A stretch of DNA of 64,000 nt, taken from Squalus acanthias (Eukaryota). The notes under the pieces are model-generated. The model was not told where the DNA came from. It saw only the letters and a list, made by a program, of their open reading frames with translations, and searched no databases. The stretch lies in NCBI GenBank assembly GCA_030390025.1, contig JASTWF010000335.1:248001-312000 (forward strand), given 5' to 3'. This document shows, piece after piece, positions 17,494 through 60,499 of this stretch; position 1 is the stretch's first letter, and every line of letters starts with the position of its first letter. A program made the position numbers and the translations under genes.

Positions 17494-18939
17494 CATAGAA
17501 CATAGAACAGTACAGCACAGTACAGGCCCTTCGGCCCTCGATGTTGTGCCGAGCATTGTCCGAGACCAAGATCAAGCTATCACACTCCCTATCACTCTGG
17601 TGTGCTCCATGTGCTTATCCAATAACCGCTTGAAAGTTCCTAAAGTGTCCGACTCCACTATCACAGCAGGCAGTCCATTCCACACCCCAACCACTCTCTG
17701 AGTAAAGAATCTACCTCGGACATCCCTTCTATATCTCCCCCCATGCACCTTATAGTTATGCCCCCTTGTAACAGCTGCCTCTACCCGAGGAAATAGTCTC
17801 TGAACATCCACTCTATCTATCCCCCTCATCATCTTATAAACCTCTATTAAGTCGCCTCTCATCCTCCTCCGCTCTAAAGAGAAAAGCCCCAACTCCCTCA
17901 ATCTTTCCTCATAAGACCTCCCCCCCAAACCAGGCAGCATCCTGGTAAATCTCCTTTGCACTCTTTCCAATGCTTCCACGTCCTTCCTATAGTGAGGTGA
18001 CCAGAACTGCACACAATATTCCAAATGTGGTCTCACCAAGGTCCTGTACAGTTGCAGCATAACCTCACGGTTCTTAAACTCAAACCCTCTGTTAATAAAC
18101 GCCAACACACCATAGGCCTTCTTTACTGCTCTATCCACTTGAGTGGCAACCTTCAGAGATCTGTGGATATGAACCCCCAGATCCCTCTGCTCCTCCACGT
18201 TCCTCAGAACCCTGCCGTTGACCCTGTAATCCTTATTCAAATTTGCCCTACCAAAATGAATCACCTCGCACTTATCAGGGTTAAATTCCATCTGCCATTT
18301 TTCGGCCCAGCTCTGCATCCTATCAATGTCTCTTTGCAGCCTACAACTGCCCTCCACCTCATCCACTACTCCACCAATCTTGGTGTCATCAGCAAATTTA
18401 CTGATCCACCCTTCAGTCCCCTCCTCCAAGTCATTGATAAAAATCACAAACAGCAGAGGACCCAGCGCCGACCCCTGTGGCACACCGCTGGTAACTGGTC
18501 TCCAGTCCGAAAATGTTCCATCCACCACCACCCTCTGCCTTCTATGAGATAGCCAGTTACTTATCCAATCGGCCAAATTTCCCTCTATCCCACAACTCCT
18601 TACTTTCTTCATGAGACGACCATGGGGAACCTTATCAAACGCCTTACTAAAATCCATGTATACGACATCAACTGCTCTACCTTCATCTACACACTTAGTT
18701 ACCTCCTCAAAGAATTCAATCAAATTTGTTACGCAAGACTTACCCTTCACGAATCCGTGTTGACTATCCCTGATTAAGTTGCCCCTTTCCAAATGGTCAT
18801 AAATCCTATCCCTCAGGACCTTTTCCATTATCTTACCAACCACCGAAGTAAGACTAACCGGCCTATAATTACCAGGGTCATTCCTATTTCCTTTCTTGAA
18901 GAGAGGAACAACATTCGCCACTCTCCAGTCCTCTGGCAT
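17494..18939 (-). mobile_element. Young 5'-truncated CR1 with an uninterrupted RT ORF, inserted into the 3' end of another LINE
   Basis: Open frame PEDWRVANV...FADDTK...stop at 17572, with a catagaa repeat tail. CAT appears at both junctions. The host element (17450-17493 plus 18940-19152) rejoins across it. Confidence 0.92.
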
Positions 18940-19179
18940 CCTGACTCGGAAATATATCGGCCGTTCCTTCATCGTCGCTGGGTCAAAATCCTGGAACTCG
19001 CTCCCTAACAGCACTGTGGGAGTACCTTCACCACACGGACTGCAGCGGTCGAAGAAGGCGGCTCACCACCACCTTCTCCAGGGGCAATTAGGAATGGGCA
19101 ATAAATGCTGGCCTTGCCTTCAATGCCCACATCCCGTGAATGAATAAAAAAATATACATCTATGATCTGGACATGGGTA

Positions 19180-22274: not shown

Positions 22275-22563
22275 TATCTCCGTACATGTAACTTTAATAT
22301 TTAAATATATACAGAGCGCCTCTTCTCTCAGCAGGGGTATAAACACTCGAAGCATTTTCGCATCGATGGACATTTTCTGTTAAACCTGCTATTGCTGCGT
22401 TAAAGGCAAACGTTTCATTTCCCCACAGCGAGGCTCACGGGGTTTTTACCGTCCGTCTCCCGCCACCTGAGTAAAGCAACAGTGCATGTGTGTTTTTTTT
22501 CTTTCTTTCTAGGGCCTGGCATCGAAACTCCTGGGCGTCGCATCGTCTCAGGCCTCTTCATTA
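22275..22563 (-). other. ms4a: Putative terminal exon of the MS4A-like gene: TAA stop (22563-22561) and 3'UTR
   Basis: Acceptor cttgtcctttttaaacag|TAA. Unique sequence with an ATTAAA poly(A) signal variant at 22298-22293 on the minus strand. The 3' end is approximate. Confidence 0.62.
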
Positions 22564-22879
22564 CTGTTTAAAAAGGACAAGCCATGAATTAGCACGATCT
22601 ACAACGGAGAGAGCGCGTTGATTGTTAAAACAGGCGTGGGAGTCACATCGGGAAGGGTCCAGTGGCCCCATCAGGCTTCCTGCACCTACTGGAGTGCTCT
22701 TGCACAGTCCATGGGGGGTGTGGTGGAGGGAAACACACACACACACACACACACACACGTACAAAAACAGGCGGTTTCGCATCGGTTGCCTGTTATACAC
22801 TCCATCCCGTCAGTTCCGTTGACGACAGTAGAGCCGAACATCGGGCATGTCCTGTAACAATCAGCCAATGTGATTCCGC

Positions 22880-23945
22880 CTGTCGTACCATGGAGCACTC
22901 CCCTCCTCTTCTTTCAATAGCAGCCGTGGGATCTTTTAACTCCATCTGAGAGGGCAGACGGGGCCACGGTTTAACCGAAAGACGGCACCTCCGACAGTGC
23001 ACCACTTCCTCAGTACTGCCCTGTCGGTGGGGCAATACTGAGGAAGAGCTGCACTGTCGGAGGGGCAGTACTGAGGAAGAGCTGCACTGTCGGAGGGGCA
23101 GTACTGAGGGAGTGCTGCACTGTCGGAGGGGCAGTACTGAGGAAGAGCTGCACTGTCGGAGGGGCAGTACTGAGGAAGAGCTGCACTGTCGGAGGGGCAG
23201 TACTGAGGAAGAGCTGCACTGTCGGAGGGGCAGTACTGAGGGAGTGCTGCACTGTCAGAGGGGCAGTACTGAGGGAGCGCTGCACTGTTGGAGGGGCAGT
23301 ACTGAGGGTGTGCTGCACTGTTGGAGGGCCAGTACTGAGGGAGCGCTGCACTGTCGGAGGGGCAGTACTGAGGGAGCGCTGCACTGTCGGAGGGGCAGTA
23401 CTGAGGGAGCGTCGCACTGTCGGAGGGGCAGTACTGAGGGAGCGCTGCACTGTCGGAGGGCCAGTACTGAGGGAGCGCCGCACTGTCGGAGGGGCAGTAC
23501 TGAGGGAGCGCCGCACTGTCGGAGGGCCAGTACTGAGGGAGCGCTGCACTGTCGGAGGGGCAGTACTGAGGGAGCGCTGCGCTATCGGAGGGGCAGTACT
23601 GAGGGAGCATTGTACTGTCGGAGGTGCCGTCTTTCGGATGAGACGTTAAACCGAGGTTCCCCTTCTGCCCTCTCGGATGGACGTTAAAGATATCACGGCC
23701 ACTACTGGAAGAAGAGCAGGGCAGTTCTCCCCTGTGTCCTGGGGTAATATTTATCACTCAACCAAAATCACTAAAGCAGATGGTCTGGTCATTTATCACA
23801 TTGCTGTTTGTGGGAGCTTGCTGTGTGCAAATCGTCTGCTGCATTTCCTACATTACAACAGCGACTGCCCTTCAAAAGTACTTCATTGGCTACTAAAGCA
23901 CCTCGGGACATCCTGAGGTTGTGAAAGGCGCTATGTAAATGGGAG
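22880..23945. mobile_element. Two divergent Deu-domain SINE halves joined by a 33-bp minisatellite array
   Basis: Minus-strand Deu segment at about 22900-23020, plus-strand 33-bp array at 23025-23620, then plus-strand Deu core ggaggtgccgtctttcggatgagacgttaaaccgagg through the 3' end gtgaaaggcgctat (about 23935). Confidence 0.8.
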
Positions 23946-24255
23946 ATCTTCCTCGCCTGACCCTAATATCTCAATCTTTGTTCCTCTCCCGATCACCTCC
24001 ACTAATTGCAGGCGTGGCAGTAAAATCCCCAGCCTGGTGACAAAACGGTTCACGACGCTCTCTGTTTACATGTGGAAAGACCCGGACACAGGAACAGGAG
24101 GAGGCCATTCAGCCCCTCGGGCCGGATCAGCCGTTCGGTGAGATCACGGCTGATCTGCGACCTAACTCCTCGCAGCCGCCTTTTCCCCTCATCCCTTAAC
24201 ACCTTTGTGAGAAGTCGCACAACACCAGGTTATAGTCCAACAGCTTTATTTGAAA

Positions 24256-24292
24256 TCACAAGCTTTCGGAGCGCTGCTCCTTCGTCAGGTGA
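24256..24292 (-). ncRNA. Minimal type I hammerhead ribozyme motif
   Basis: Exact reverse complement of 24514-24550. Confidence 0.8.
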
Positions 24293-24513
24293 AGTGAAGA
24301 GATGCATATAGGCACAGCATATATAGTCAGAGAACACTGCCAGGTGACTACAGTTAATCTTTCTAACTGCCCTTTATCACACCTCGGCAGACCTGTGATT
24401 GCCGTGATTATCTCTCTGCCGAGGTGCGATAAAGGGCAGTTAGAAAGATTAACTGTAGTCACCTGGCAGTGTTCTCTGACTATATATGCTGTGCCTATAT
24501 GCATCTCTTCACT

Positions 24514-24550
24514 TCACCTGACGAAGGAGCAGCGCTCCGAAAGCTTGTGA
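24514..24550 (+). ncRNA. Minimal type I hammerhead ribozyme motif
   Basis: UCAC-CUGACGA-a-GGAGC agc GCUCC-GAAA-GCUU-GUGA: both conserved core boxes, a 5-bp stem II, a 4-bp stem I and a palindromic AGCU in place of stem III. Confidence 0.8.
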
Positions 24551-24892
24551 TTTCAAATAAAGCTGTTGGACTATAACCTGGTGTTGTGCGACTTCTCACA
24601 TTTGTCCACCCCAGTCCAACACCGGCATCTCCACATCATCATCTTTAACACCTTTGGTTGACAAAAATCTATTAATCTCTGATTTGAAATGAACAATTGA
24701 CCCAGCATCAACTCCTGTTTGTGTGTCGAAGTGTTTCTTAACTTCACTCCTGAAATGCCTGGCTCTAATTTTTCGGTAATCATTCTGGTAAATCTACACT
24801 GCACTCCCTCCAAGGCCAGTATATCCTTCCGATTTTCCACACCGCCTCTCTCCCGTCTACCCTCCAGTGGCCGCGACCCAGCATCGACTTAC

Positions 24893-24985
24893 GTGCTTGC
24901 AGATGATGATGGCAACCAGAAGGGCGATGAAAATCTCCACCACAGAGTATAGAAAAAGCAAGGCCAATATAAACATCGGTGCTCG
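24893..24985 (-). CDS. ms4a: MS4A/CD20-family protein, coding exon 5 (TM4): RAPMFILALLFLYSVVEIFIALLVAIIICKH
   Basis: ttttattctttcccgcccccacag| ... CAC|gtaagt; 93 nt, phase 0/0. Hydrophobic helix with the MS4A-type L..S.LE..IA...C pattern. Confidence 0.85.
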
Positions 24986-25433
24986 CTGTGGGGGCGGGAA
25001 AGAATAAAATAGCATTGGTCAATCGAGTGCTGCTGGTGAAAGCAATCTATTTTTCGTTTCGGCCAATAGCGTACAAGTGAAATTCGACTGAACGGAAAAT
25101 GCAAACGGAACAGTTTTACCCCCCTGACCCTCTGACACCTGTCGAGCCTGGCAATGCTGTGGGGCTTGTGGGGAACATAGGAACGGGAGGAGGCCATTCA
25201 GCTCCTTCGAGCCTGTTCCGCCATTCAATGAGATCACGGCTGATCTGTATCCTCACTCCATCCACCCGCCTTGGCTCCATATCTCTTTATACCCTGGGCT
25301 AGCAAAAAAATCTATCGATCTCGATTTAAAGTGATTAATTGAGCTCGTGCATCTACTGCTTTTTGTGGGAGAGAGTTCCACACTTCTACCACCCTATGCG
25401 TGTAGAAGTGTTTCCTAACTTCTCTCCTGAATG

Positions 25434-25682
25434 TAATGTTTTCCTGACTGACCTGTTTGGACACCATCCACACCTTTGATTGCCGTGATTATCTCTCTGC
25501 CGAGCTGTGATAAAGGGCAGTTAGAAAGATTAACTGTAGTCACCTGGCAGTGTTCTCTGACTATATATGCTGTGCCTATATGCATCTCTTCACTTCACCT
25601 GACGAAGGAGCAGCCGCTCCGAAAGCTTGTGATTTCAAATAAAGCTGTTGGACTATAACCTGGTGTTGTGCGACTTCTCACA
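25434..25682 (+). mobile_element. Solo Penelope-like pseudo-LTR with a hammerhead motif (25595-25632)
   Basis: Same sequence as the arms at 24.2-24.6 kb. 13-bp TSD TCTCTCCTGAATG at 25421-25433 and 25683-25695. The hammerhead has a 1-nt longer loop II. Confidence 0.85.
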
Positions 25683-26157
25683 TCTCTCCTGAATGGCCTG
25701 GCTCTGATTTTAAGGTTATGTCCCCCTTGTCCTAGACTGCCCCCGCCCCCCCCCCCCACAACAGCGGGAAAAAGTTTCTCTCTGTCTAACTCCATCAATT
25801 CCTTTCAAAATCCTAAAAAAACCTCAATCACATCGCCCCCTTAACCTTCTATATTCCAGGGAATACAAGCCTAGTTTGTGTAATCTCTGCTCGTAATCTG
25901 ACCCTTGGAGCCCTGGTAACAGTCTGGTGAATCTGCGCGGCACTCCCTTTTCCAAGGCCAATATGTCCTTTCTAAGGTGCGGTGCCCAGAACTGTACACA
26001 GTCCACCGGGTGTGGTCTAACCAGGGCTTTGTATAGCTGTGGCAAAACTTCCTCCCCTTTATATTCTAGCCCTCCAGTGATAAAGGCTAACATTCCATCA
26101 GCCTTTTTTTGATTATTTTTTGCACCTGACCCACTACATTTTAATGATTTGTGTACA

Positions 26158-26930
26158 GGAAGGCAGATTATTATCTGAATGGCAATAGATTGGGAGACGG
26201 GGAAGTGCAACGAGACCTGGGTGTCCTTGTGCACCAGTCGCTGAAGGTAAGCATGCAGGTGCAGCAGGTGGTGAAGAAGGCAAATGGTATGTTGGCCTTC
26301 ATAGCGAGAGGGTTTGAGTATAGGAACAGGGATGTCCTGCTGCAGTTGTACAGGGCCTTGGTGAGACCACACCTTGAGTACTGTGTGCAGTTTTGGTCGC
26401 CTTATCTGAAGAAGGAGGATCTTGCCATGGAGGGAGTGCAGCGAAGATTCACCAGGCTGATACCTGGGATGGCAGGAATGACGTATGAGGAGAGATTGGG
26501 GCGATTGGGCATATACTCGCTGGAGTTTAGAAGAATGAGAGGCGATTTCATCGAAACTTATAAAATTCTGAAAGGACTGGACAGACTAGATGCAGGAAGG
26601 ATGTTCCCGATGGTCGGGGAGTCCAGAACCAGGGGTCACAGTCTAAGGATAAGGGGTAAGCCATTTAGGACAGAAATGAGGAGGAATTTCTTCACCCAGA
26701 GAGTGGTGAACCTGTGGAATTCTCCACCACAGAAGGCAGTTGAGGCCAAGTCAGTAAATATATTCAAGAATGAGTTAGATATATTTCTTAAAGCTAAAGC
26801 TATCAAGGGATATGGGGAGAAGGCAGGTACAGGGTACTGAGTTTGGATGATCAGCCATGATCTCATCGAATGGCGGAGCAGGCTCGAGGGGCCGAATGGC
26901 CTACTGCTATGTTCTATGTTTCTATGTTTC
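26158..26930 (+). mobile_element. 5'-truncated CR1 (intact C-terminal ORF and tail)
   Basis: ORF 26151..26840 and a ctatgtt tail. TACA is repeated at both junctions. Confidence 0.9.
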
Positions 26931-27499
26931 TACATGGACCCCGAGATTTCTTTGGATCGGCACTGTTCCTAGCTTTTCACCATTTATCCTTTTCTCTCTC
27001 TCTACCCCTATCAATTCTGTTCAAAGGCAGTGCTTGATCCACCTGGGATGTTTCTGTTCCTGGGCCCACTGTGTGAGCGTGGCGGCCCCTTCCCGCAGTT
27101 TGGAGCCTGGGAGAATTCCGCCCTTGCGTTGGGTGCGGCGACGGCTGCGAATGCGATGGCAGTGAATAGGCAGTAAGGTGGCGGGTACTGATAGCAGGTT
27201 TGGTGCGTGTCCTGGCCAGAATGACGGGGACCAATTTGGCCCCGCCCAGTAGCTGCCACTCCACCCGCCGCCCCCCCCCCCCCAGCCAGTACCGAATTCC
27301 AGGTTGGCTTATTTACAGGGAGCGGGCGGGCGGGATCTGGCATGAGTGGCAATCCCGTCAGATGATGCCAGCCCCCACGTTTGCCTGGCCGCGCCCCCCC
27401 CCCAGACCACTGAATATTCAGGCTGCCCCCCACACAGCAATGTCCCAAGATGCACAAGAAACAGTGGTTCTTTCGGCACACTATGGCTGCCGTGGCAAC

Positions 27500-27895
27500 A
27501 GAGACCAGGGATGGAGCCTGGGCCTCTCCTGCTCTGTGTGTGTGTGGGGGGCTCAGTAACACACCAGGTGTGAGATCAGCTCACTCAGCACTAGGCCGAG
27601 AATGGAGCCTGGGGCTCTCCTGCTCTGTGTGTGTGTGGGGGGCTCAGTAACACACCAGGTGTGAGATCAGCTCACTCAGCACTAGGCCGAGAATGGAGCC
27701 TGGGCCTCTCCTGCTCTGTGTGTGTGTGTGTGGGGCTCAGTACCACACCGGGTGTGAGATCAGTTCACTCAGCACAGGCCGGGGATGGAGCCTGGGCCTT
27801 TCCTGCTCTGTGTGTGGGGGGCTCAGTACCACACCGGGTGGGAGATCAGCTCACTCAGCACTAGGCCGGGGATGGAGCCTGGGCCTCTCCTCTCC
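27500..27895 (-). repeat. About 90-bp tandem repeat (4-5 units) of a tRNA-like SINE head
   Basis: Reverse complement of the unit at 60500-61048; it contains a variable (tg)n tract. Confidence 0.8.
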
Positions 27896-28091
27896 CGTGC
27901 AGCTTGGCTCTAACAAGTTCCCCAGAACAGAGGCCTCAGGCAATCAGCAGTACGATCGCTAAAGGAAGAAGGGTCAAGCAACACTGCTCCGCGGGAAAGC
28001 ACTTCTTAGAACACATGCCGCGCAAGGGCGCTGAGTAAACTGCTGCGGCGCAGGATACGAAACGACAGCAGCGAGCGAGGGCGGTACTTAC

Positions 28092-28205
28092 TGCGACGTA
28101 AATGGCAGTGCCCGATCTAGACAGCAAGGTTGAGATGATGAACACCACAGCTCCGAGGGCCGCCGCGATCGCACTGACGAAATTAAAGATCATTGTCAAC
28201 TTTCT
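28092..28205 (-). CDS. ms4a: MS4A/CD20-family protein, coding exon 4 (TM3): RKLTMIFNFVSAIAAALGAVVFIISTLLSRSGTAIYVA
   Basis: ccctctgcgttgttttcag| ... GCA|gtaagt; 114 nt, phase 0/0. Matches the MS4A TM3 motif N..SA..A..G. Confidence 0.88.
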
Positions 28206-28304
28206 CTGAAAACAACGCAGAGGGACAGGTGAAGAACTGAAATACTGCCACTCAGAAACAGATTCTAAATCAGCAGGTACAGCGATGAACATCCCCTCAC
28301 CTAC

Positions 28305-28646
28305 AACCTGCATTTATACGACGCCTGGAACGCTGTAAAAACTACAACAACGTGCATTGATACAGCACCTTTAACGTAGTAAAACGGCCCAAGGCGCTTC
28401 ACAGGAGCGATTACCAAACACAATTTGACACCGAGCCGCATAAGAAGATATTAGGACAGGTGACCAAAAGCTTCGTCAAAGAGGTAGGTTTTAAGGAGGG
28501 TCTTAAACGAGAAGATGGGGGCGGAGAGGTTTCGGGAAGGAATTCCAGAGCTTAGGGCCTCGGCAGCTGAAGGCACGGCCGCCAATGGTGGAGCGATTAC
28601 ATTCGGGGGATGCGCAAGAGGCCAGAGTTGGAGGAGCGCCGAGATC
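28305..28646 (-). mobile_element. L2-type LINE 3' fragment
   Basis: Minus strand reads ...FKTLLKTYLFD.AF, with an end ttactacgttaaaggtgctgtat. It continues after the CR1 insert at about 29217. Confidence 0.7.
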
Positions 28647-29216
28647 ATAGAATCACAGTAGAAAGTTACAGCACGGAAGGAGGCCATTTCGGCCCATCGT
28701 GTCCGCGCCGGCCAACAAAGAGCTATCCAGCCTAATCCCACTTCCCAGCGCTTGGTCCGTAGCCCTGCAGGTTAGAGCATCCCAAGTGTACATCCAAGTA
28801 CTTTTTAAATGTGGTGAGGGTTCCTGCCTCTACCACCCTTTCAGGCAGCGAGTTCCAGACCCCCACAACCCTCTGGGTGAAGAAATTTCCCCTCAAATCC
28901 CCTCTAAACCTTCCACCAATTACTTTAAATCTGTGCCCCCTGGTTTTTGACCTCTCTGCTAAGGGAAATAGGTCCTTTCTATCCACTTTATCTATGCCCC
29001 TCATAATTTTATACGCCTCAATAAGGTCTCCCCTCAGCCTCCTCTGTTCCAAGGAAAACAGACCCAGCCTATCCAGTCTTTCCTCATAGCTAAGATTCTC
29101 TACTCCCGGCAACATCCTTGTAAATCTCCTCTGTACCCTCTCTAGTGCAATCACATCTTTCCTGTAATGTGGTGACCAGAAACTGCACGCAGTACTCTAG
29201 CTGAGGCCTAACTAGT
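28647..29216 (-). mobile_element. CR1 3' fragment inserted in the L2 fragment
   Basis: ORF 28732..29154(-). GATC is duplicated at 28643-28646 and 29217-29220. Confidence 0.88.
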
Positions 29217-29220
29217 GATC

Positions 29221-29472
29221 TCGGAGGGTTGTAGGGATGAACAGACTCGGAGGGTTGTAGGAATGAACAGACTCGGAGGGTTGTAGGGATGAACAGACTC
29301 GGAGGGTTGTAGGGATGAACAGACTCGGAGGGTTGTAGGGATGAACAGACTCGGAGGGTTGTAGGGATGAACAGACTCGGAGGGTTGTAGGGATGAACAG
29401 ACTCGGAGGGTTGTAGGGATGAACAGACTCGGAGGGTTGTAGGGATGAACAGACTCGGAGGGTTGTAGGAAT
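29221..29472. repeat. 26-bp minisatellite (about 9.5 units) seeded at an L2 motif
   Basis: Unit tcggagggttgtagggatgaacagac. Confidence 0.93.
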
Positions 29473-29929
29473 GTCAGGTGTGTGTCAGTGACGGCTGCCC
29501 AGCCCGTGGCTAGTTTCAAGTAGATGGCCATCCTTTCATCTCTGGGACAGTGTAGAGGGAGGGGCTCCCACATCCCAATACAATGTGGGGGGGCGGGGGG
29601 AGGGGAGACATCCACACCCCCCACACGGGAGTATCTCTCTGGCAGTCAACCCCGAATTCAGAGTCTGCGCTCGCAGGGATTGTCTGGGACCGGGTTCGAA
29701 TCCTGCACCTTCCGAATCGGAGAATCGCTCCGCGCCAAGACTGAAAATGGGGCTGCAGCGCCGGAGCATGGACTGCTGTTCAGAACGGGAGGGGAACAGA
29801 ACTTGGTGTTTTTTCCCCCCCCCACACGGGTCGAACAGTTTGCAAAGCTATCGGAATCTGCCAAAACTCCCAACTTCAGAAGCACTGGATTGGCTGTGAA
29901 TCGATTTGGAGCAGCCCGAGGCTGTGAAA

Positions 29930-31362
29930 GGCGCGAGAGACATGCAAGTCTCTCTTTCCAGTCTCAAAGCGCATCACAACAATCAAGCACTTGTTTTTGT
30001 GAAGTGTAGTCACTGTTGAAATGTAGGAAAAACGGCAGCCAATTTGCACACAGCAAGCTCCCACAAACAGCAATGAGTTAAATGACCAGATCATCTGTTT
30101 TAGTGATTTTGGTTGAGTGATAAATATTACCCCGGGACACAGGGGAGAACACCACTGCTCTTCTTCCAGTAGTGGCCGTGATATCTTTTACTTCCATCCG
30201 AGAGGGCAGAAGGGGAACCTCGGTTTAACTTCTCATCCGAAAGACGGCATCTCCGACAGTACAATGCTGCTTCAGTACTTCCCCTCCGACAGTGCAGCGC
30301 TCCCTCAGTACTGACCCTCCGACAGTGCAGCGCTCCCTCAGTACTGACCCTCCGACAGTGCAGCGCTCCCTCAGTACTGACCCTCCGACAGTGCAGCGCT
30401 CCCTCAGTACTGACCCTCCGACAGTGCAGCGCTCCCTCAGTACTGACCCTCCGACAGTGCGGCGCTCCCTCAGTACGGCCCCTCCGACAGTGCAGCGCTC
30501 CCTCAGTACTGCCCCTCCGACAGTGCGGCGCTCCCTCAGTACTGCCCCTCCGACAGTGCAGCGCTCCCTCAGTACTGACCCTCCGACAGTGCAGCGCTCC
30601 CTCAGTACTGACCCTCCGACAGTGCGGCACTCCCTCAGTACTGACCCTCCGACAGTGCAGCGCTCCCTCAGTACTGCAGCTCCAACAGTGCAGTACTCCC
30701 TCAGTACTGACCCTCCGACAGTGCAGCGCTCCCTCAGTACTGACCCTCCGACAGTGCAGCGCTCCCTCAGTACGGCCCCTCCGACAGTGCAGCGCTGCCT
30801 CAGTACTGACCCTCCGACAGTGCAGCGCTCCCTCAGTACTGCCTCTCCGACAGTGCAGCGCTCCCTCAGTACTGCAGCTCCAACAGTGCAGTACTCCCTC
30901 AGTACTGCCCCTCCGACAGTGCAGCGCTCCCTCAGTACTGACCCTCCGACAGTGCAGCGCTCCCTCAGTACGGCCCCTCCGACAGTGCAGCGCTGCCTCA
31001 GTACTGACCCTCCGACAGTGCAGCGCTCCCTCAGTACTGACCCTCCGACAGTGCAGCGCTCCCTCAGTACTGACCCTCCGACAGTGCGGCGCTCCCTCAG
31101 TACTGTCCCCTCCCACAGTGCAGCGCTCCCTCAGTACTGACCCTCCGACAGTGCAGCGCTCCCTCAGTACTGACCCTCCGACAGTGCGGCGCTCCCTCAG
31201 TACTGTCCCCTCCGACAGTGCGGCTCTCCCTCAGTACTGACCCTCCGACAGTGCAGAGCTCCCTCAGTATTGGCACCGCGGAGTGATAGCCTGGATTATG
31301 GCGCTTGAGTCGGGTTTGAACCCACGCTCTGAGCCAGAGTGCTACCCACTGAGCCACGGCTG
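29930..31362 (-). mobile_element. Deu-domain SINE with an internal 33-bp array of about 30 units
   Basis: tRNA-like head at 31362-31275 (gtggctcagtgg...gggttcaaaccc), array at 31270-30255, Deu core and tail at 30255-29930. Confidence 0.88.
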
Positions 31363-31498
31363 CCTGGGCACAAGGAGTCTGCCAACCAATGGCCATTTAC
31401 AAAGGTCTCCACGACAGCAAGTTGGCAGACGCTTTTCGGTTCGTACCCCCTCTCCCCTCATTCGGTGCTCAGTGCTGGTTTATCGCTGCTGTACTTAC

Positions 31499-31555
31499 CA
31501 CACGCTGCTCTGGTTGGTCGACATTTAGCATCGTCAGTGCTCCTGAAATCACAAA
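31499..31555 (-). CDS. ms4a: MS4A/CD20-family protein, coding exon 3 (end of TM2): FVISGALTMLNVDQPEQRV
   Basis: ttttgttgctttgtccctgttgcag| ... GTG|gtaagt; 57 nt, phase 0/0. FVISGAL corresponds to the MS4A F/Y-IISGSL motif. Confidence 0.9.
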
Positions 31556-31657
31556 CTGCAACAGGGACAAAGCAACAAAAGAGTGTAAGATGGCTGCCCG
31601 CCGGTGCTGAAGCACAACAGAGCGGGATGGAAATTCCGCTCCCTCCAATATCATGTA

Positions 31658-32970
31658 TGTGAGAAGTCGCACAACACCAGGTTATAGTCCAACAGCTTTA
31701 TTTGAAATCACAAGCTTTCGGAGCGCTGCTCCTTCGTCAGGTGAAGTGAAGAGATGCATATGGGCACAGCATATATAGTCAGAGAACACTGCCAGATGAC
31801 TACAGTTAATCTTTCCGACTGCCCTTTATCACAGCTCGGCAGAGAGATAATCACGGCAATCAGAGGTGTGGATGGTGTCCAAACAGGTCAGTCAGGAAAA
31901 CATTACATCAAAGACAATGAGGTGGGGTCACAAGGGGGTCAATGTGGCAGATGCTGGGGTCTGTATGGAAAACAAAAAACTGTTTTTGCTGGAAATCACA
32001 GCAGGTCCGGCCGCATCTGTGTAGAGAGAACAAGCCAACGACGACTCGAGTCTGGATGACTCTACGTCAGGTGGGGTTACATGTAGCGTGACATGAACCC
32101 AAGATCCCGGTTGAGGCCGTCCTCATGGGTGCGTAACTTGGCTATCAGTTTCTGCTCGACGATTTTGCGTTGTCGTGTGTCTCGAAGGCCGCCTTGGAGA
32201 ACGCTTACCCGAAGATCGGAGGCTGAATGTCCTGGACTGCTGAAGTGTTCCCCGACTGGGAGGGAACACTCCTGCCTGGCGATTGTTGCGCGGTGTCCGT
32301 TCATACGTTGTCGCAGTGTCTGCATGGTCTTGCCGATGTACCATGCTCCGGGGCATCCTTTCCTGCAACGTATGAGGTAGACAACGTTGGCCGAGTCACA
32401 TGAGTATGTACCATGTACCTGGTGGGTGGTGTCCTCACGTGTGATGATGGTATCTGTGTTGATGATCTGGCATGTCTTGCAGAGGTTGCCGTGACAGGGT
32501 TGTGTGGTGTCGTGGTCGCTGTTCTCCTGAAAGCTGGGTAATTTGCTGCAAACGATGGTACTTTTGAGGTTAGGCGGCTGTTTGAAGGCGAGTAGTGGGG
32601 GCGTGGGGATGGCCTTAGCGAGGTGTTCGTCGTCATCGATGACATGTTGAAGACTGCGAAGAACATGGCGTAGTTTCTCCGCTCCAGGAAAATATGACAC
32701 CAAAGTCAATGAGGTGGGGTCACAAGGGGTCAAATGTGGCAGATGCTGGGGTCTGTATGGAAACAAAAAACTGTTTTTGCTGGAAATCACCTGGCAGTGT
32801 TCTCTGACTATATATGCTGTGCCTATATGCATCTCTTCACTTCACCTGACGAAGGAGCAGCGCTCCGAAAGCTTGTGATTTCAAATAAAGCTGTTGGACT
32901 ATAACCTGGTGTTGTGCGACTTCTCACATTTGTCCACCCCAGTCCAACAACCGGCATCTACACATCACGG
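31658..32970 (-). mobile_element. 5'-truncated Penelope-like element with GIY-YIG endonuclease and inverted pseudo-LTRs
   Basis: ORF 32077..32832(-): PLLAFKQPPNLK, C..C..C, NVVYLIRC...WYIGKT..TLRQRMNGHR, PVGEHF, GLNRD. 13-bp TSD CCAATATCATGTA at 31645-31657 and 32971-32983. Hammerhead motifs at 31708-31744(-) and 32842-32878(+). Confidence 0.92.
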
Positions 32971-33009
32971 CCAATATCATGTAGAAACGCATCAAAATCA
33001 AAGCGCCAC

Positions 33010-33995
33010 TTGCGGAGTGGCATCGTGGTTATGTTACTGGACTAGGCAATCCAGAGAGGGCCTGGACTAATAATCCGGGACACGTGAGTTCACATCCCAC
33101 CATGGCAGATTGTGAATTTAAATTCAGTGAATGTAATAAATCTGGACTAAAAAGCTAGGAGCAGTAATGGTGACCGCGAAACCACAATGAAACCTGTCGG
33201 AAAAAACCCAACTGGTTCTCTGATGTCCTTTCGGGAAGGAAACCTGCCGTCCTTACCTGGTCTGGGCCTACATGACTTATGAGGAAAGGTTGAGTAGGTT
33301 GGGCCTCTACTCATTGGAATTCAGAAGAATGAGAGGCGATCTTATCGAAACATATAAGATTGTGAGAGGGCTTGATCGGGTGGAGGCGGGGAGGATGTTT
33401 CCACTGATGGGTGAGACTAGAACTAGGGGGCATAATCTTAGAATAAGGGGCTGCCGTTTCAAAACTGAGATGAGGAGAAACTTCTTCACTCAGAGGGTAG
33501 TAGGTCTGTGGAATTTGCTACCTCAGAGAGCTGTGGAAGCTGCGACATTAAATACATTTAAAACGGAGATAGACAGTTTCCTAGCTGATAAGGGAATTAA
33601 GGGTTATGGGGAGCGGGCAGGGAAGTGGACGAGAGTCTAGGTTCGGATCAGCCATGATCCTATTGAATGGCGGAGCAGGCCCGATGGGTCGTATGGCCCA
33701 CTCCTGCTTCTACTACTTATGTTCTTATGTACATGTGACTCCAGACCCACAGCAATGTGGTTGACTCTTAAGCCCCTTTGAAATGCCCTTCGCGAACCGC
33801 TTCAAAAAAAAAGGTACGAGAAGAATAAACGGGACGGATCGACCCAAGCAGAAAAGCACCGTGGGACCATCTTCACCACACGGGACTGCAGCGGTTCAAG
33901 AAGGCGGCCCGCCACCAGCTTCTCGAGGGGCAATTAGGGGACGGGCAATCAACGCCAACCATGCCAGCGAGGACCCACATCCTGTGAATAAAAAC
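33010..33995 (+). mobile_element. tRNA-related SINE with a LINE-derived tail, interrupted by a young CR1 3' fragment (about 33272-33730)
   Basis: Head similar to 16160-16435 and a tail shared with the 13985-16130 LINE. TACATG is duplicated around the CR1 insert, which is nearly identical to 54535-54995. Confidence 0.75.
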
Positions 33996-34294
33996 ATTAC
34001 GAAACAAATGGAATAGGAGCGGGTTAAACCCATCCACGATTGCAATTTCCACTCCAGCAACTGCAGGATTGTGCGTGACTGGGATACTGATTTCTCGTCA
34101 GTTCGAATCACTGGGCGGAAAAGCACAGGCTCGTGGCGTATCGTTTCAGACGAGAAGCAGGAAATCTCCGCCCCCTGTCTCTGCTCCTTCTCTCTCTCTA
34201 ACTGCTCTGAATGAAGCAGATGGAATAAATCGCATCTCACCAGCTACAGTTTCAACCCAGCGCTTCTGGGTGAGGTTCAAAAGAAAAGAAAGGG

Positions 34295-35392
34295 CTCCGC
34301 ATTCCGACAGCGCCTTTCACAACCTCAGGACGTCCCAAAGCGCTTGACAGCCAATGACGTACTTTTGGAGTGTGGTCACTGTTGTAATTTGGGCAAGGCG
34401 GCAGCCAATTTGCGCACAGCAGGCTCCCACAAACATCAATGCGCTAATTATCAGATAATCTGTGTTTTTTTGAGTGATATTGATTGAGGGATAAATATTG
34501 GCCAGGACACTCATAAGAACATAAGAACTTAAGAACATAAGAAATAGGAGCAGGAGTAGGCCAATTGGCCCCTCGAGCCTGCTCCGCCATTCAATAAGAT
34601 CATGGCTGATCTGATCCTAACCACCAATCTACTATCACAGAACCATCTCCTGAACCTAACAGAATTGGACACACGAAATAGGAGCAGGATCAGGCTACAC
34701 AGTCCCTGGGCCCGCTCCACTACCCACAGGGCCATGACCGATCCGAACCTAGACTCATGTCCAAATTCCTGCCCGCTCCCCGTAACCCTTAATTCCCTTT
34801 ACTTCTAGGAAACTGTCTATTTCTGTTTTAAATTTATCTAATGATGTAGCTTCTACAGCTCTTTGGGGCAGCATATTCCATGGACCTACCACCCTCTGAG
34901 TGAAGTAGTTTCTCCTCATCTCAGTTTTGAAAGAGCAGCCCCTTATTCTAAGATTATGCCCCCTAGTTCTAGTCTCACCCATCATCGGGAACATCCTCCC
35001 CGCATCCACCCGATCAAGCCCCTTCACAATCTTATATGTTTCAATAAGATCGCCTCTCACTCTTCTGAACTCCAATGAGTAGAGTCCCAATCTACCCAAC
35101 CTCTCCTCATATGTCCACCCCCTCATCCCCGGGATTAACCGAGTGAACCGTGATAACTGCCCCGCTCCTCTCTGAAATGGTGCCATGGGATCTTCTACGT
35201 CCACCTCGGAGAGCAGACGGGGCCTCGGTTTAACGTCTCATCCGAAATAGGGCCCCTCCGACCGTGCAGTGCTCCCTCAGTACAGCGCTGGGAGTGTCAG
35301 CCTCGATTTTTGTTCTCAGGACTCTGGAGTGGGACCCCACAACCTTCGGACTCGGAGGCGAGAGTGCGACCCACTGGGCCACGCCTGACAGC
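34295..35392 (-). mobile_element. Deu-domain SINE without array expansion, interrupted by a CR1 3' fragment (about 34512-35150)
   Basis: Head at 35392-35300, a single 33-bp unit at about 35252-35290 and the Deu core. The CR1 ORF is at 34755..35150(-) with an ataagaac-repeat tail. Confidence 0.85.
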
Positions 35393-35590
35393 TGGTTAAA
35401 GTAAAGAGGAATTTCACTCAAAAAAATCGCACCGCAGAGTATCAACCCCCAGCGTTGCCTCGTTTACCAGCGACTGTTTCATGGATCGCTGCAACTATCA
35501 CATGGGTTTTTTTTTATACACGGAAAGAGCTGCATTATGCTAGTCGGGTACATGCAGTCCCTTTGCAAGGACGTAGCGTGCAAAATCTTA

Positions 35591-36207
35591 GGGCTGGATT
35601 TTCATTGACCCGTGGAGGCGGGTTTGGAGGCGTGTGGGGGGTTAAAATTGCGAAAACTGGCGGGCGGGCACAAGTCCGCCTCCATCCCGCCTCCACGCAA
35701 TTTTCATTAAATCGTGTCTGCTGGTCCCGACTCCGTCCCGCCTTTAAGAGGCGGGATAGGCTGTTAAGGCCCTTAACAAGCACTAAATTGGCTCTGTAAT
35801 GCCATTTTGAAAGGCCTTTGTGATTTTAACCCTTGATCTACGTGAAGCACGCCTGTTCTGAACCACGATTGTGAAACCTGGCGGTAACATATTTGTCTGG
35901 CTGGATCTCTCTCTCTGTCTCGCTCTGTGTAAAAATATCTGGGAGCAGACCTAGGGCCGCTGCTGCTCATTGTGCATTCAGGTCCTCTCACAGCAAAGGC
36001 CAGGCAGTCTCTGAAGACCTTCAATGCAGCAGCAATGATGACATCATCAGAGGCGACTTTCAGACTGAAACCACTAATTGGGTCATGGGTTCCCACATGC
36101 TGGAACTCAATTGCCCAATTAGGTGAGAATCGCATCAATCTCCCACATCCAATTGCAGTCGGGTGGATAACACGACCCCAACCCGCCCCAGTATCAAAAT
36201 CCAGCCC
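35591..36207. mobile_element. PIF/Harbinger-type MITE, copy 2
   Basis: TIRs GGGCTGGATTTT and AAAATCCAGCCC, with TSD TTA on both sides. Confidence 0.88.
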
Positions 36208-36334
36208 TTAGTCTGCAAAGGTCAGTCCTGATCTAAGAGCTGCTCCTGAGTGTTCAAGGAGGAAGCGGAATGGAATGGAAGGAAAAATGCATTCAGCAAG
36301 TTACCGTGCCGATTAGAGAAGAGATTTGACAAAC

Positions 36335-36448
36335 CAGTATTCCTGACCACCATGGGACCCACAATCGAATGGCAACTACATACGGCGCCGAGAAATACAA
36401 TGGGACACCAAATGTCAAGTGAATCAGTCCCAGCATGATCTGCACAAC
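36335..36448 (-). CDS. ms4a: MS4A/CD20-family protein, coding exon 2 (TM1 to TM2): VVQIMLGLIHLTFGVPLYFSAPYVVAIRLWVPWWSGIL
   Basis: ctctgtgtcactctgttgtag| ... CTG|gtttgt; 114 nt, phase 0/0. LG|VVQIMLGL and PWWSG match the MS4A motifs LG..QI..GL and P.WGG. Confidence 0.9.
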
Positions 36449-36569
36449 CTACAACAGAGTGACACAGAGACGATTAGAGCAGAGTTCATTGCATCCTAAA
36501 TAATCTGGACAGTCAAAGATTTTTTTTAAAAAGCCTCAGAGATATATGTGCAAGTGAATGTGGAAGAAC

Positions 36570-38085
36570 AAAAGCTTTCCATTTATATACCACCTATCAC
36601 CTGAGGGAAAGGAATTTACACGGAGCCTTTCCCGACAGCAGGACACACACCAAAGCATTTTACAGGCAAGTGTAGTCAATGCTATAATGTAGGGAAATAC
36701 GGCAGCCAATCTGCGCACAGCAAGGTCCCAAAAATAGCAATGAGATAATAACCACATCATCTGTTTTTTTTAAGTGACGTTGGTTGAGGGATAAATATTA
36801 CGCACAGGACACCAGGGAGAATTACCGGCTCTTTTTCCAATAGTGGCCGTGGGATCTTTTACAGTCACCTGAGAGGGCAGACGCGGCCTCGGTTTAACGT
36901 CTCATCCGAAAAACGGCATCTCCGACAGTGCAGCGCTCCCTCAGTACTGCCCCTCCGACAGTGCAGCGCTCCCTCAGTACTGACCCTCCGACAGTGCAGC
37001 GCTCCCTCAGTACTGCCTCTCCGACAGTGCAGCGCTCCCTCAGTACTGCCTCTCCGGCAGTGCAGCGGAGCTCCCTCAGTACTGCCCCTCCGACAGTGCG
37101 GCGCTCCCTCAGTACTGCCTCTCCGACAGTGCGGCGCTCCCTCAGTACTGCCTCTCCGACAGTGCGGCGCTCCCTCAGTACTGCCTCTCCGACAGTGCGG
37201 CGCTCCCTCAGTACTGCCTCTCCGACAGTGCGGCGCTCCCTCAGTACTGTCCCTCCGACAGTGCAGCGCTCCCTCAGTACTGTCCCTCTGACAGTGCAGC
37301 GCTCCCTCAGTACTGATCCTCCGATAGTGCAGCACTCCCACAGTACTGATCCTCCGACAGTGCAGCGCTCCCTCAGTACTGATCCTCTGACAGTGCAGCG
37401 CTCCCTCAGTACTGCCCCTCCCACAGTGCAGCTCTCCCTCAGTACTGCCCCTCCGACAGTGCAGCGCTCCCTCAGTACTGCCCCTCCGACAGTGCAGCTC
37501 TCCCTCAGTACTGCCCCTCCGACAGTGCAGCGCTCCCTCAGTACTGCCCCTCCGACAGTGCAGCGCTCCCTCAGTACTGACCCTCCGACAGTGCAGCTCT
37601 CCCTCAGTACTGCCCCTCCGACAGTGCAGCGCTCCCTCAGTACTGACCCTCCGACAGTGCAGCGCTCCCTCAGTACTGCCCCTCCGACAGTGCAGCGCTC
37701 CCTCAGTACTGCCCCTCCGACAGTGCAGCGCTCCCACAGTACTGATCCTCCGATAGTGCAGCGCTCCCTCAGTACTGCCCCTCCGACAGTGCGGCGCTCC
37801 CTCAGTACTGCCCCTCCGATAGTGCAGCGCTCCCTCAGTACTGCCCCTCTGACAGTGCGGCGCTCCCTCAGTACTGCCCCTCCGACAGTGTAGCGCTCCC
37901 TCAGTACTGATCCTCCGACACTGCAGCGCTCCCTCAGCACTGCCTCTCCCATAGTGTAGTGCTCCCTTAGCACTGGCACCAGGCAGTGTCGGCCTGGATT
38001 CTGGGGCTCGAGTCGCTAGAGTGGGGCTCGAACGCACGACCTTCTGGCTGAGAATCGAGAGCAACACCACTGAGCCACGGCTGAC
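36570..38085 (-). mobile_element. Deu-domain SINE with an internal 33-bp array of about 32 units
   Basis: Head at 38085-37980 (gtggctcagtgg...gttcgagccc), array at 37975-36920, Deu core and tail to about 36570. Confidence 0.88.
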
Positions 38086-38148
38086 CCCTCGCTCCTTCCC
38101 GAAGCGCTGCGAGTATGTGAAACACAAACACAGATTGTATCATCTTAC

Positions 38149-38223
38149 GCCAAGATGTCTCATGCGTCGTGGTTCTTCACGCAGTAGATTTGCAGGAGAG
38201 CAGGCATCAAAGACAGATGACAT
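38149..38223 (-). CDS. ms4a: MS4A/CD20-family protein, coding exon 1: MSSVFDACSPANLLREEPRRMRHLG (exon 38226-38149)
   Basis: cttcctttccaaacag|GAGATG ... GGC|gtaaga. Only this frame is open. LLREEP...LG resembles the MS4A L+GEP+.LG pre-TM1 motif. Confidence 0.82.
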
Positions 38224-38277
38224 CTCCTGTTTGGAAAGGAAGTCTATATTAGTATACGCCAAGATAAACTAGCGCGC

Positions 38278-39884: not shown

Positions 39885-42800
39885 CAAATCCCGACACCCT
39901 GTCCCTCACCCAGACTCCCCGTCCCTCGCCCCGACTCCCCGTCCCTCGCCCCGACTCCCCGTCCCTCGGCCCGACACCCCGTCCCTCGCCCCGACTCCCC
40001 GTCCCTCGCCCCGACTCCCCGTCCCTCGCCCCGACACCCCGTCCCACGCCCCGACTCCCCGTCCCACGCCCCGACTCCCCGTCCCACGCCCCGACTCCCC
40101 GTCCCACGCCCCGACTCCCCGTCCCACGCCCCGACTCCCCGTCCCACGCCCCGACTCCCCGTCCCACGCCCCGACTCCCCGTCCCTCGCCCCGACTCCTC
40201 CTCCCTCGCCCCGACTCCCCGTCCCTCGCCCCGACTCCCAGTCCCTCGCCCCGACTCCCCGTCCCTCGCACCGACTCCCCGTCCCTCGCCCCGACTCCCC
40301 GTCCCACGATCCGACTCCCCGTCCCTCGCCCCGACTCCCCTGTCCCTCGCCCCGACTCCCTGTCCCTCGCCCCGACTCCCTGTCGCTCGCCCCGACACCC
40401 TGTCCCTCGCCCCGACTCCCTGTCCCACGCCCCGACTCCCTGTCCCTCGCCCCGACTCCGTCCCTCGCCCCGACTCCCTGTCCCACGCCCCGACATCCTG
40501 TCCCTCGCCCCGACTCCCTGTCCCTCGCCCCGACTCCCTGTCCCACGCTCCGACTCCCTGTCCCACGCCCCGACTCCCTGTCCCTCGCCCCGACATCCTG
40601 TCCCTCGCCCCGACACCCTGTCCCTCGCCCCGACTCCCTGTCCCTCGCCCCGACTCCCTGTCCCTCGCCCCGACACCCTGTCCCTCGCCCCGACACCCTG
40701 TCCCTCGCCCCGACTCCCGGTCCCACGCCCCGACTCCCTGTCCCTCGCCCCGACTCCGTCCCTCGCCCCGACTCCGTCCCACGCCCCGACTCCCTGTCCC
40801 TCGCCCCGACACCCTGTCCCTCACCCCGAAACCCTGTCCCTCGCCCCGACACCCTGTCCCTCGCACCGACACCCCGTCCCTCGCCCCGACTCCCCGTCCC
40901 TCGCCCCGACTCCCCGTCCCACGCCCCGGCTCCCCGTCCCTCGCCCCGACTCCGTCCCTCGCCCCGACTCCGTCCCTCGCCCCGACTCCGTCCCTCGCCC
41001 CGACTCCCTGTCCCTCGCCCCGACACCCTGTCCCTCACTTCGACTCCCTGTCCCTCACCCCGACTCCCTGTCCCTCACCCCGACTCCCTGTCCCTACCCT
41101 GTCCCTCGCCCCGACTCCCTGTCCCACGCCCCGACACCCTGTCTCTCAGCCCGACACCCTGTCCCTCGCCCCGACACCCTGTCCCTCGCCCCGACACCCT
41201 GTCCCTCGCTCCGACTCCCTGTCCCCCGCCCCGACTCCCTGTCCCCCGCCCCGACTCCCTGTCCCCCGCCCCGACTCCCTGTCCCCCGCCCCGACTCCCC
41301 GTCCCCCGCCCCGACTCCCCGTCCCTCGCCCCGACTCCCTGTCCCTCGCCCCGACTCCCTGTCCCTCGCCCCGACTCCCTGTCCCTCGCCCCGACTCCCT
41401 GTCCCTATCCTGTCCCTCGCCCCGACTCCCTGTCCCACGCCCCGACTCCCTGTCCCTCGACCCGACTCCGTCCCACGCCCCGACTCCCGGTCCCTCGCCC
41501 CGAAACCCCGTCCCTCGCCCCGACACCCCGTCCCTCGCACCGACTCCCCGTCCCTCGCCCCGACTCCCCGTCCCTCGCCCCGACTCCCCGTCCCTCGCAC
41601 AGACACCCCGTCCCTCGCCCCGACTCCCCGTCCCACGCCCCGACTCCGTCCCACGTCCCGACTCCCTGTCCCACGCCCCGACTCCCTGTCCCTCGCCCCG
41701 ACTCCCTGTCCCTCGCCCCGACTCCCTGTCCCTCGCCCCGACTCCCTGTCCCTCGCCCCGACTCCCTGTCCCTCGCCCCGACTCCCTGTCCCTCGCCCCG
41801 ACTCCCTGTCCCTCGCCCCGACTCCCTGTCCCTCGTTCCGACTCCCTGTCCCTCGCCCCGACTCCCTGTCCCTCGCCCCGACTCCCTGTCCCTCGCCCCG
41901 ACTCCCTGTCCCTCGCCCCGACTCCCTGTCCCACGAACCGACTCCCTGTCCCTCACCCGACTCCGTCTCACACGCCCCGACTCCCTGTCCCTCGCCCCGA
42001 CTCCCTGTCCCACAAACCGACTCCCTGTCCCTCACCCCGACTCCCTGTCCCGCACCCCGACTCACTGTCTCTCACCCCGACTCCCTGTCCCTCACCCCGA
42101 CACCCTATCCCTGACCTCGACACCCTATCCCTGACCCCGCCACCCTATCCCTGACCCCGCCACCCTATCCCTGACCCCGGCACCCTATCCCTGATCCCGG
42201 CACCCTATCCCTGACTCCGACACCCTATCCCTGACTCTAACCCTATCCCTAACACCGACACCCTATCCCTGACCCCGATACCCTATCCCTGACCTCGACA
42301 CCCTATCCCTGACCCCGACACCCTATCCCTGACTCTGAGACCCTTTCCCTAACACCGACACCCTATCCCTGACCCCGACACCCTAATCCTGACCCCGACA
42401 CCCTATCCCTGACCCCGACACCCTATCCCTGACCCCGACACCCTATCCCTGACCCCGACACCCTATCCCTGACCCCGACACCCAACCCTGACCCCGACAC
42501 CCTATCGCTGACTCTGAGACCCTATCCCTGACCCCGACACCCTATCCCTGACTCCGACACCCTATCCCTGACCCCGACACCCTATCCCTGACTCCGACAC
42601 CCTATCCCTGACTCCGACACTCTATCCCTGACCTCGACACCCTATCCCTGACCCCGACACCCTATCCCTGACCCCGACAGCCTATCCCTGACCTCGACAC
42701 CCTATCCCTGACCCCGACACCCTATCCCTGACCCCGACACTCTATCCCTGACGTCGACACTCGAACTCTGACACCAAACACTCGAAGCCTGACCCCCAAC

Positions 42801-45800: not shown

Positions 45801-46670
45801 ATCTGCCCGACACCCTATCCCTCCCCCCGAGACCCTATCCATCTGCCCGACACCCTATCCCTCTCCCCGACACCCTATCCCTCCCCCCCGACACCCTATC
45901 CCTCCAGATCCCTTCCCCCGACACCCTATCCCTCTCCCCGACACCCTATCCCTCCCCCCGACACCCTATCCCTCCGGATCCCTTCCCCCGACACCCTATC
46001 CATCTCCCCGACACCCTATCCCTCCCCCCGACACCCTATCCCTCCGGATCCCTCCCCCCCGAGACCCTATCCATCTGCCCGACACCCTATCCCTCTCCCC
46101 GACACCCTATCCCTCCTCCCGACACCCTATCCCTCCCCTCGACACCCTATCTCTCTCCGCGACACCCTATCCCTCCGGATCCCTTCCCCCGACACCCTAT
46201 CCATCTCCCCGACACCCTATCCCTCCCCCCGACACCCTATCCCTCCGGATCCCTTCCCCCGACACCCTATCCATCTGCCCAACACCCTATCCCTCCCCCC
46301 GACAATCTCCCCAACACCCTTTCCCTGGCCCCGACACCCTATCCCTGACCCCGACACCCTATCACTGACCTCAACACTCTAACCCAGAACCCGGACCCAG
46401 ACCCCGATACCCGGCACCCCGACCCTCGAACCCTGACCCTATACCCGACAATGCAACACTGGATTCCTGACCCCAACAATGCAACACTGGATTCTTTACC
46501 CCGACAATGCAACACTGGATTCCTGACCCCAACATTGGAACGCTGAACCAACACTCGAATCCTGACCCCTATACCTGGCCCCAGACCCCAGCACCCGAAC
46601 CCCCGACACTCGAACCCCGACCCTCGAAACCTGACCCCAACACTCGAACCCTGACCCCAGCACACTCTCC
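39885..46670. repeat. C-rich 20-bp satellite domain of about 6.8 kb in three successive variants
   Basis: ccgactccc(c/t)gtccctcgcc (39.9-42.1 kb), ccgacaccctatccctgacc (42.1-44.7 kb) and ccgacaccctatccctcccc (45.2-46.35 kb). It is interrupted at 44790-45210 by CR1-tail and V-SINE fragments. Confidence 0.95.
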
Positions 46671-48450: not shown

Positions 48451-48771
48451 TCACCATCCCATTAAGTTGCAAAAGAATATATATCATAGAATCATAGAAT
48501 GATACAGTGCAGAAAGAGGCCATTCGGCCCGTCCAACCTGTGCCGGCTCTTTGGTAGAGCTTTCCAATTAGTCCCACTCCCCACCGCTTTCTCTCCATAG
48601 CCAGTATCGATCCAATTCCTCAGCTGGAGTATTGTGTCCAATTCTTGGGCACCACACTTTCGGAAGGATGAGGAGATTTAAGAGGAGATTTACCAGAATG
48701 GTACCAGGGATGAGGGTCTTCAGTTATGGAGAGATTTAGAGAAGCTGGGATTATAGCAGAGAAGATTAAGG

Positions 48772-60432: not shown

Positions 60433-60499
60433 GTTGATAAACATCGAGCACGGCATAATTATTTGTGAAGCAAAAGTGTTCTTGACCACTTCCCCCAAA

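Follow-up and report, generated by a model that had tools for sequence, protein, structure and literature searches.

Does a 64,000-nucleotide (nt) stretch of the spiny dogfish genome (Squalus acanthias, assembly GCA_030390025.1, contig JASTWF010000335.1, positions 248,001–312,000; hereafter the window) encode a genuine member of the MS4A/CD20 family, and what might such a protein do with almost no C-terminal tail? A first-pass annotation had proposed a short spliced gene for four transmembrane helices (TM1–TM4) at positions 22561..38226. We find that the gene is real, intact and spliced, and that its protein, as judged from gene models of seven shark species, probably ends two residues past a cysteine that follows TM4. 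Papers are cited by PubMed Central number or preprint identifier.

An intact spliced gene on the minus strand

The peptides of the first-pass annotation were placed on the minus strand of the window by six-frame search. Its five GT-AG, phase-0 coding exons were reproduced by script joining: each is preceded by AG and followed by GT, and together they form 453 nt, or 151 codons with zero stops, whose translation is identical to the peptide first reported. Introns 1–4 measure 1700, 4779, 3293 and 3106 nt. When the seven shark orthologues described below were compared with the window by tblastn, each matched all five exons, in order, with E ≤ 0.001, and matches elsewhere in the window had E ≥ 0.17; these ordered matches show that the five exons did not arise by chance. 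The same search revealed no second MS4A gene in the window. What the original exon list omits is the sixth exon that the stop codon requires, although its starting coordinate, 22561, implies one.

At the 5′ end, the better acceptor for the first coding exon is that at 38226, with 15.8 versus 6.5 on our crude scale, and the ATG follows 3 nt further on; an untranslated exon upstream of 38226 therefore probably exists. A missed exon in intron 4 that would extend the TM3-TM4 loop was considered and rejected, as no open phase-0 candidate rose above the crude-score threshold and the orthologues have the same loop. Three presumed-RNA sequencing runs compared with 24660–25300 covered only interspersed-repeat pieces and left exon 5 uncovered, and are uninformative on expression. 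As a separate observation, the word ACTTCCGG, which we take to be ETS-like, stands near 38820 on the minus strand, about 600 nt above the ATG, and may mark a promoter or an upstream exon.

A shark-wide clade of tail-less proteins

A search of 1.84 billion representative proteins with exon 2 gave four matches. Two were genuine, a 151-residue sawshark model named “MS4A4D-like” (P0001) and a catshark fragment, and two (P0003 and P0004) were dropped as unrelated repetitive proteins; a word-based search of longer proteins with exon 2 and its flank gave no matches. With the sawshark protein as query, 9 of 135 candidates matched; with a profile built from six sequences, the figure was 28 of 8000 scored. 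Neither set of matches contained an entry for the window protein itself. Along its full length, the window protein shares 66–75% identity with seven complete proteins of 147–152 residues, each from a different shark species: Chiloscyllium plagiosum XP_043541963.1 (MS4A12-like X1, 147 residues), C. punctatum XP_072420652.1, the sevengill Heptranchias perlo XP_067834444.1 (152 residues), Stegostoma tigrinum XP_059498744.1, the catsharks Scyliorhinus torazame XP_072356739.1 and S. canicula XP_038656922.1 (CD20-like X1, 151 residues) and the sawshark Pristiophorus japonicus UniRef100_UPI00398EC47F (MS4A4D-like, 151 residues). All seven share the start methionine of the window protein and likewise its end, the Scyliorhinus exon boundaries are the same, and 55 positions are invariant among the eight clade members; the orthologues differ from the window protein by ordinary divergence only.

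A midpoint-rooted tree of 22 proteins, with mammalian MS4A and TMEM176 outside the sample, resolved three groups: the tail-less clade (eight rows, support 100/99), tailed shark paralogues (nine, 100/99) and canonical MS4As (five, 95/93). Not included were incomplete records and those with skipped exons (P0002, P0009-11, P0014-15, P0026-29), the near-duplicate P0019 and the unrelated P0003-4. Within the tail-less clade the window protein groups with the sawshark and sevengill proteins (98/99), a position that suggests a squalomorph source. The clade is 23–30% identical to both tailed groups and sits on a stem of 1.86 changes per site; long branches separate the two shark clades where they join, and their deeper placement is tentative. 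From these relationships we take the clade to be one orthology group that spans squalomorph and galeomorph sharks. The names its members carry (CD20-like and MS4A4D-, MS4A12-, MS4A15- and MS4A18-like, five in all) are automatic best-hit labels and not statements of orthology. The orthologues are already predicted in public databases, to which the window gene adds one species. No description of the clade was found in the literature searched, whose coverage leaves out most subscription journals.

Membership of the MS4A/CD20 family

Profile matches, motifs and predicted fold all point to the family that the first-pass annotation named. Exon 2 alone matches the Pfam CD20 profile (PF04103) with E 3.7e-6 and 27.5 bits, just below the whole-protein cut-off of 27.9, and P0001 does so with E 5.4e-12 and 46.5 bits; scanned one by one, none of the other four exons matched. 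The window protein carries LGxxQI in TM1, PxWxG and a FIISGSL-like run in TM2 and Sx3Ax2G in TM3 (4/4 present), which are listed as MS4A motifs in the available text of PMC11663944. Its hydropathy profile has four peaks, near residues 34, 58, 97 and 139, which we read as predicted helices, and for P0001 AlphaFold likewise builds four long helices (predicted local distance difference test score, pLDDT, 69; predicted template modelling score, pTM, 0.59). With this model as query, the top nine Foldseek rows were all FcεRIβ or CD20 (best E 2.6e-3, none ≤0.001), and a wide structural search aligned FcεRIβ over 140 residues (Z 12.7, root mean square deviation 3.0). Basic residues at 15–22, 81–84 and 150 agree with cytoplasmic N- and C-termini, and by analogy with other MS4As both termini would be cytoplasmic.

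Two motifs that are frequent in the family, though not universal, are missing. GExKxLG before TM1 is found in 0/8 members of the tail-less clade, 0/9 tailed shark paralogues and 5/5 canonical MS4As, and SLx2N before TM3 in 0/8, 0/9 and 2/5, respectively, its Asn being retained. Such losses would mark a divergent branch and are compatible with membership of the Pfam family. On this combined sequence evidence, we assign the window gene to the MS4A/CD20 family.

The clade may lie nearer a fish TMEM176-like branch or a bony-fish short-MS4A group than MS4A proper, which we regard as rather unlikely. The loss of GExKxLG throughout the clade would suit such a placement, and a comparison of features puts two Atlas clusters nearest to it, a 161-residue chordate “MS4A4D-like” family and si:ch211-269k10.4 (0.90–0.91; CD20 on 45–50% of members). 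However, the TM1–TM3 motifs fit the MS4A consensus, and the best Atlas structural match of the bamboo-shark orthologue P0007 is an MS4A12-like cluster (template modelling score 0.88). No TMEM176 sequences were among the matches of the homologue searches, no papers on si:ch211-269k10.4 were found in the literature searched, and the available part of 10.1101/2024.06.28.601189 holds no tmem176l synteny. The question is in any case one of placement, not of mechanism.

The probable last exon and the missing tail

Exon 5 has no stop codon and ends in a GTAAGT donor; the terminal stop thus requires a sixth exon. Between 24850 and 19000 there are 52 acceptor sites on the crude acceptor score, four of which would open their exon with a stop codon. 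One of the four, the acceptor at 22563, scores 16.4 and is preceded at −29 by the branch-like word CTAAT, a feature shared with exons 1 and 2; its surroundings are almost without window repeats, and an ATTAAA lies about 265 nt downstream. Its exon would open with the stop codon itself, giving the 151-residue form. Among 13 records of the tail-less clade from seven species, all computed gene models, the TM4 exon is present in 10, each of which stops 2–3 residues past the post-TM4 Cys position. Catshark isoforms from two species (P0009 and P0014) consist of the first 120 residues of the long forms and end exactly at the exon 4 boundary, and catshark isoform X3 lacks exactly residues 83–120, which are exon 4. 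Such exact endings at two different exon boundaries point to a last exon that opens with a stop, since translation running on past a GT donor would append one Val or more. A stop codon in a last exon escapes nonsense-mediated decay.

A transcript joining exon 5 to a second acceptor of the same terminal exon, at 22598, would yield a 167-residue MS4A with a short ordinary tail, or both forms could be made. This acceptor has a good pyrimidine tract and a TTAAC branch-like site of its own at −30, and its score of 15.5, nearly as high as the 16.4 of 22563, counts against the shorter form. The 16-residue extension opens hydrophobic and by eye resembles the tail starts of several mammalian MS4As (Fig. 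S1 of PMC2826416, available in part). Yet such a tail occurs in 0/13 clade records from the seven species, though the searches spanned 80–328 residues, and the hydrophobic run may be explained by its position, since it coincides with elements of the 22563 acceptor, namely branch site and pyrimidine tract. Weighing these points, we consider the 167-residue form unlikely, and splicing of exon 5 to 22563 quite likely. Retention of intron 5, which would add 11 residues, is rejected by the consensus donor and the orthologue ends.

The catshark models also illustrate exon skipping: P0009 and P0014 omit the TM4 exon (120 residues) and P0011 the TM3 exon (113 residues), in frame, and three-helix isoforms are allowed because all exons are in phase 0. 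Within intron 5, positions 24206–24600 hold an inverted repeat of two 186-nt arms, 99% complementary, with a 23 nt spacer; in the transcript these arms could pair into a long hairpin that lies between exon 5 and the last exon.

Distinctive features and comparison with known MS4As

The near-absent tail that the first-pass annotation saw as unusual is borne out by the seven orthologues: two residues follow the post-TM4 Cys in the window protein versus 20–51 in 14 other aligned proteins. Two further features that it singled out proved ordinary. The TM3-TM4 loop is short (14–18 residues; 18 in the window protein) and has no Cys, and 9/9 tailed shark paralogues share this pattern, with 17–18 residues and no Cys; as we understand the available text of PMC11663944, this loop ranges from 10 to 46 residues (printed “1046”), with MS4A8B and MS4A12 as exceptions in the Cys pair. 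The post-TM4 Cys is present in 21/22 aligned proteins. A feature missed at first is Cys8, invariant in 8/8 clade members, in an N-terminus of 24 residues with an Arg patch at 15–22. By these comparisons, the lost tail, the short N-terminus with Cys8 and Arg patch and the loss of GExKxLG appear distinctive. Neither endoplasmic reticulum-retrieval dilysine nor CaaX C-termini occur in any of the 22 aligned proteins. The window protein has no immunoreceptor tyrosine-based activation (ITAM) or inhibitory (ITIM) type motif outside the membrane, its only YxxL/I/V being Y133 inside TM4.

The tailed shark paralogues (e.g. S. torazame XP_072356752.1, 187 residues; others from Rhincodon, Stegostoma, Carcharodon and Narcine) resemble the window protein in the second outer loop and the post-TM4 Cys but are only 23–29% identical to it, with tails of 20–28 residues and longer N-termini. 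Mammalian CD20 (MS4A1) and FcεRIβ (MS4A2) share with it the Pfam CD20 domain, the TM motifs and the fold, and Cys220 of CD20 is the counterpart of its post-TM4 Cys. Unlike them, the window protein has no long tails, ITAM or large disulfide loop, and identity in structural alignments with the P0001 model is 19–24%. Orthology with CD20 was rejected on the 18-residue loop without a Cys pair and the two-residue tail, and orthology with FcεRIβ on the missing tail and the location of the only YxxL/I/V motif within TM4; in the available text of PMC2826416, orthologues of the human MS4A genes are confined to mammals. None of the tests run identifies CD20, FcεRIβ or MS4A4A as its orthologue; among sharks, where the clade is clear, the earlier view that no orthologue could be assigned is superseded.

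Three spiny dogfish genes, MS4Ax1-3, with expression outside blood cells, have been reported (PMC2826416, as available). MS4Ax1 is canonical, with a 49-residue N-terminus and a GEPKALG motif, unlike the window protein, and none of six published dogfish MS4A primers matched the window gene's exons (best, seven mismatches). Identity with these published genes is therefore unsupported, x2 and x3 having been compared by primers only. The same source, as far as available, describes short mammalian MS4As: MS4A13, truncated at the N-terminus; MS4A6E, truncated; and, if the row order of its Fig. S1 is read correctly, MS4A5, which ends about 11 residues past the post-TM4 Cys. These are precedents for reduced ends, and none was seen there with four helices and only two post-Cys residues. 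Among other shark MS4As, P0030 (Pristiophorus, 261 residues; Y245/Y255) and P0031 (Heptranchias, 227 residues; Y211/Y221) carry C-terminal YxxL pairs with ITAM-like spacing. Since no FcR-γ chain or classical Fc receptors are reported from sharks in the available part of PMC4016189, the partner of such proteins is of interest.

Proposed function and alternatives

FcεRIβ signals via its ITAM and CD20 via phosphorylated long tails (PMC11663944, PMC13226681, both in the parts available). With no tail and no cytoplasmic tyrosine motif, signalling of either style is impossible for the 151-residue form. Splicing of the TM4 exon to a stop-first last exon would instead reduce the protein to little more than a bundle of four membrane helices. 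S-acylation of Cys8 and Cys149, together with the Arg patch (residues 15–22), could keep it in ordered membrane domains; CD20 is described as palmitoylated at Cys111 and/or the post-TM4 Cys220 (PMC3355122, in part). The protein would then act through its helices, which may touch further copies of itself, tailed paralogues or a receptor, and would tune the assembly, traffic or clustering of these partners; MS4A oligomerisation is discussed in the available text of PMC2826416. By analogy with the family, we judge it somewhat better than an even chance that the window protein is a lipid-anchored accessory or scaffold subunit that works via helix contacts and not as a signalling chain. A more specific version, for which we hold out only modest hope, is an ancient shark subfamily reduced to the membrane core, anchored by an acyl group on Cys8 and regulating tailed or ITAM-bearing MS4A partners. 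A homodimer prediction for P0007 scored 0.04 and was not used as evidence either way.

Besides the rival acceptor, several points weigh against this proposal. The function rests entirely on family analogy, the clade records are computed gene models and not proteins observed in tissue, and the modelled structure is that of an orthologue rather than of the window protein. Two chains of the dystrophin-glycoprotein complex tie with or exceed FcεRIβ in the structural search (Z 13.7 versus 12.7); the fold is thus a generic four-helix arrangement, uninformative on function. The sevengill orthologue, the sole exception among the 22 aligned proteins, has Trp at the post-TM4 Cys position, and the Cys is therefore dispensable there.

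A component of cation flux or a channel modulator would need no tail; roles of this kind are reported for CD20, MS4A12 and TMEM176B, and PMC11663944 (available in part) reviews what MS4As do in calcium handling. Buried polar residues are conserved, namely Glu137 in 22/22 aligned proteins and Gln28 and Asn90 in 8/8 clade members, but such conservation is family-wide and not specific. We also know of no pore in the solved CD20 dimers, which weighs against ion flux, a role that we think improbable. We give still less credence to the idea that the protein is a dedicated decoy, which would compete without a tail of its own by hetero-oligomerising with tailed shark MS4As and so dampen them. In S. 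torazame, S. canicula and Stegostoma, the tail-less gene and tailed paralogues apparently share a scaffold, to judge by equal scaffold lengths, and P0030 and P0031 bear two YxxL motifs 10 residues apart. However, the tails of neighbouring paralogues (20–28 residues) lack YxxL in 2/2 checked, and the long separation from the tailed groups is unlike that of a recent truncated copy.

The surrounding DNA

Minisatellites and retroelements make up the remainder of the window (Table 1). Among 103 of 198 long frames scanned, no neighbouring host gene was found and only retroelement domains rose above the cut-off; the scan skipped repeat-derived and overlapping frames, and short exons would escape it.

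Table 1 Features of the window. LTR, long terminal repeat; LINE, long interspersed nuclear element; UTR, untranslated region
Feature	Position	Strand	Remarks
First coding exon with likely acceptor	38149..38226	minus	ATG at 38223; acceptor likely 38226
Coding exon 1	38223-38149	minus	75 nt, 25 codons; predicted cytoplasmic N-terminus with Cys8 and Arg-rich patch, TM1 start
Coding exon 2	36448-36335	minus	114 nt, 38 codons; TM1, short outer loop, TM2 start; Pfam CD20 match
Coding exon 3	31555-31499	minus	57 nt, 19 codons; TM2 remainder, inner loop
Coding exon 4	28205-28092	minus	114 nt, 38 codons; TM3, most of short outer loop 2
Coding exon 5	24985-24893	minus	93 nt, 31 codons; TM4, C-terminal Cys-Lys-His; GTAAGT donor next
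Likely terminal exon (putative)	22293..22563	minus	acceptor 22563; TAA 22563-22561; 3′ UTR; candidate ATTAAA 22298-22293
Rival acceptor, same terminal exon	22598 (22548..22598)	minus	+16 residues; stop at 22550-22548
LTR-retroelement pol frames	61305-64000	minus	reverse transcriptase, RNase H, integrase; one open 781 codons
LINE-type reverse transcriptase and endonuclease pieces	1871-2770, 17572-19062, 48770-54092, 58257-60564		
Long C-rich minisatellites	7059-12693, 39890-46363		flank the gene
33-nt arrays	3789-5475, 23016-23624, 30251-31269, 36920-37975, 55046-55676		three of five inside the gene's introns

Implications

The clade now stands under five inconsistent names in the databases and would be gathered into one orthology group. 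If the proposed reading is true, the dogfish gene and its orthologues would represent a natural minimal MS4A, revealing what the four-helix core does without tails. With the tail lost throughout the clade by way of a stop-first last exon, such proteins would then serve as natural controls in asking which part carries MS4A function, the membrane core or the tails.

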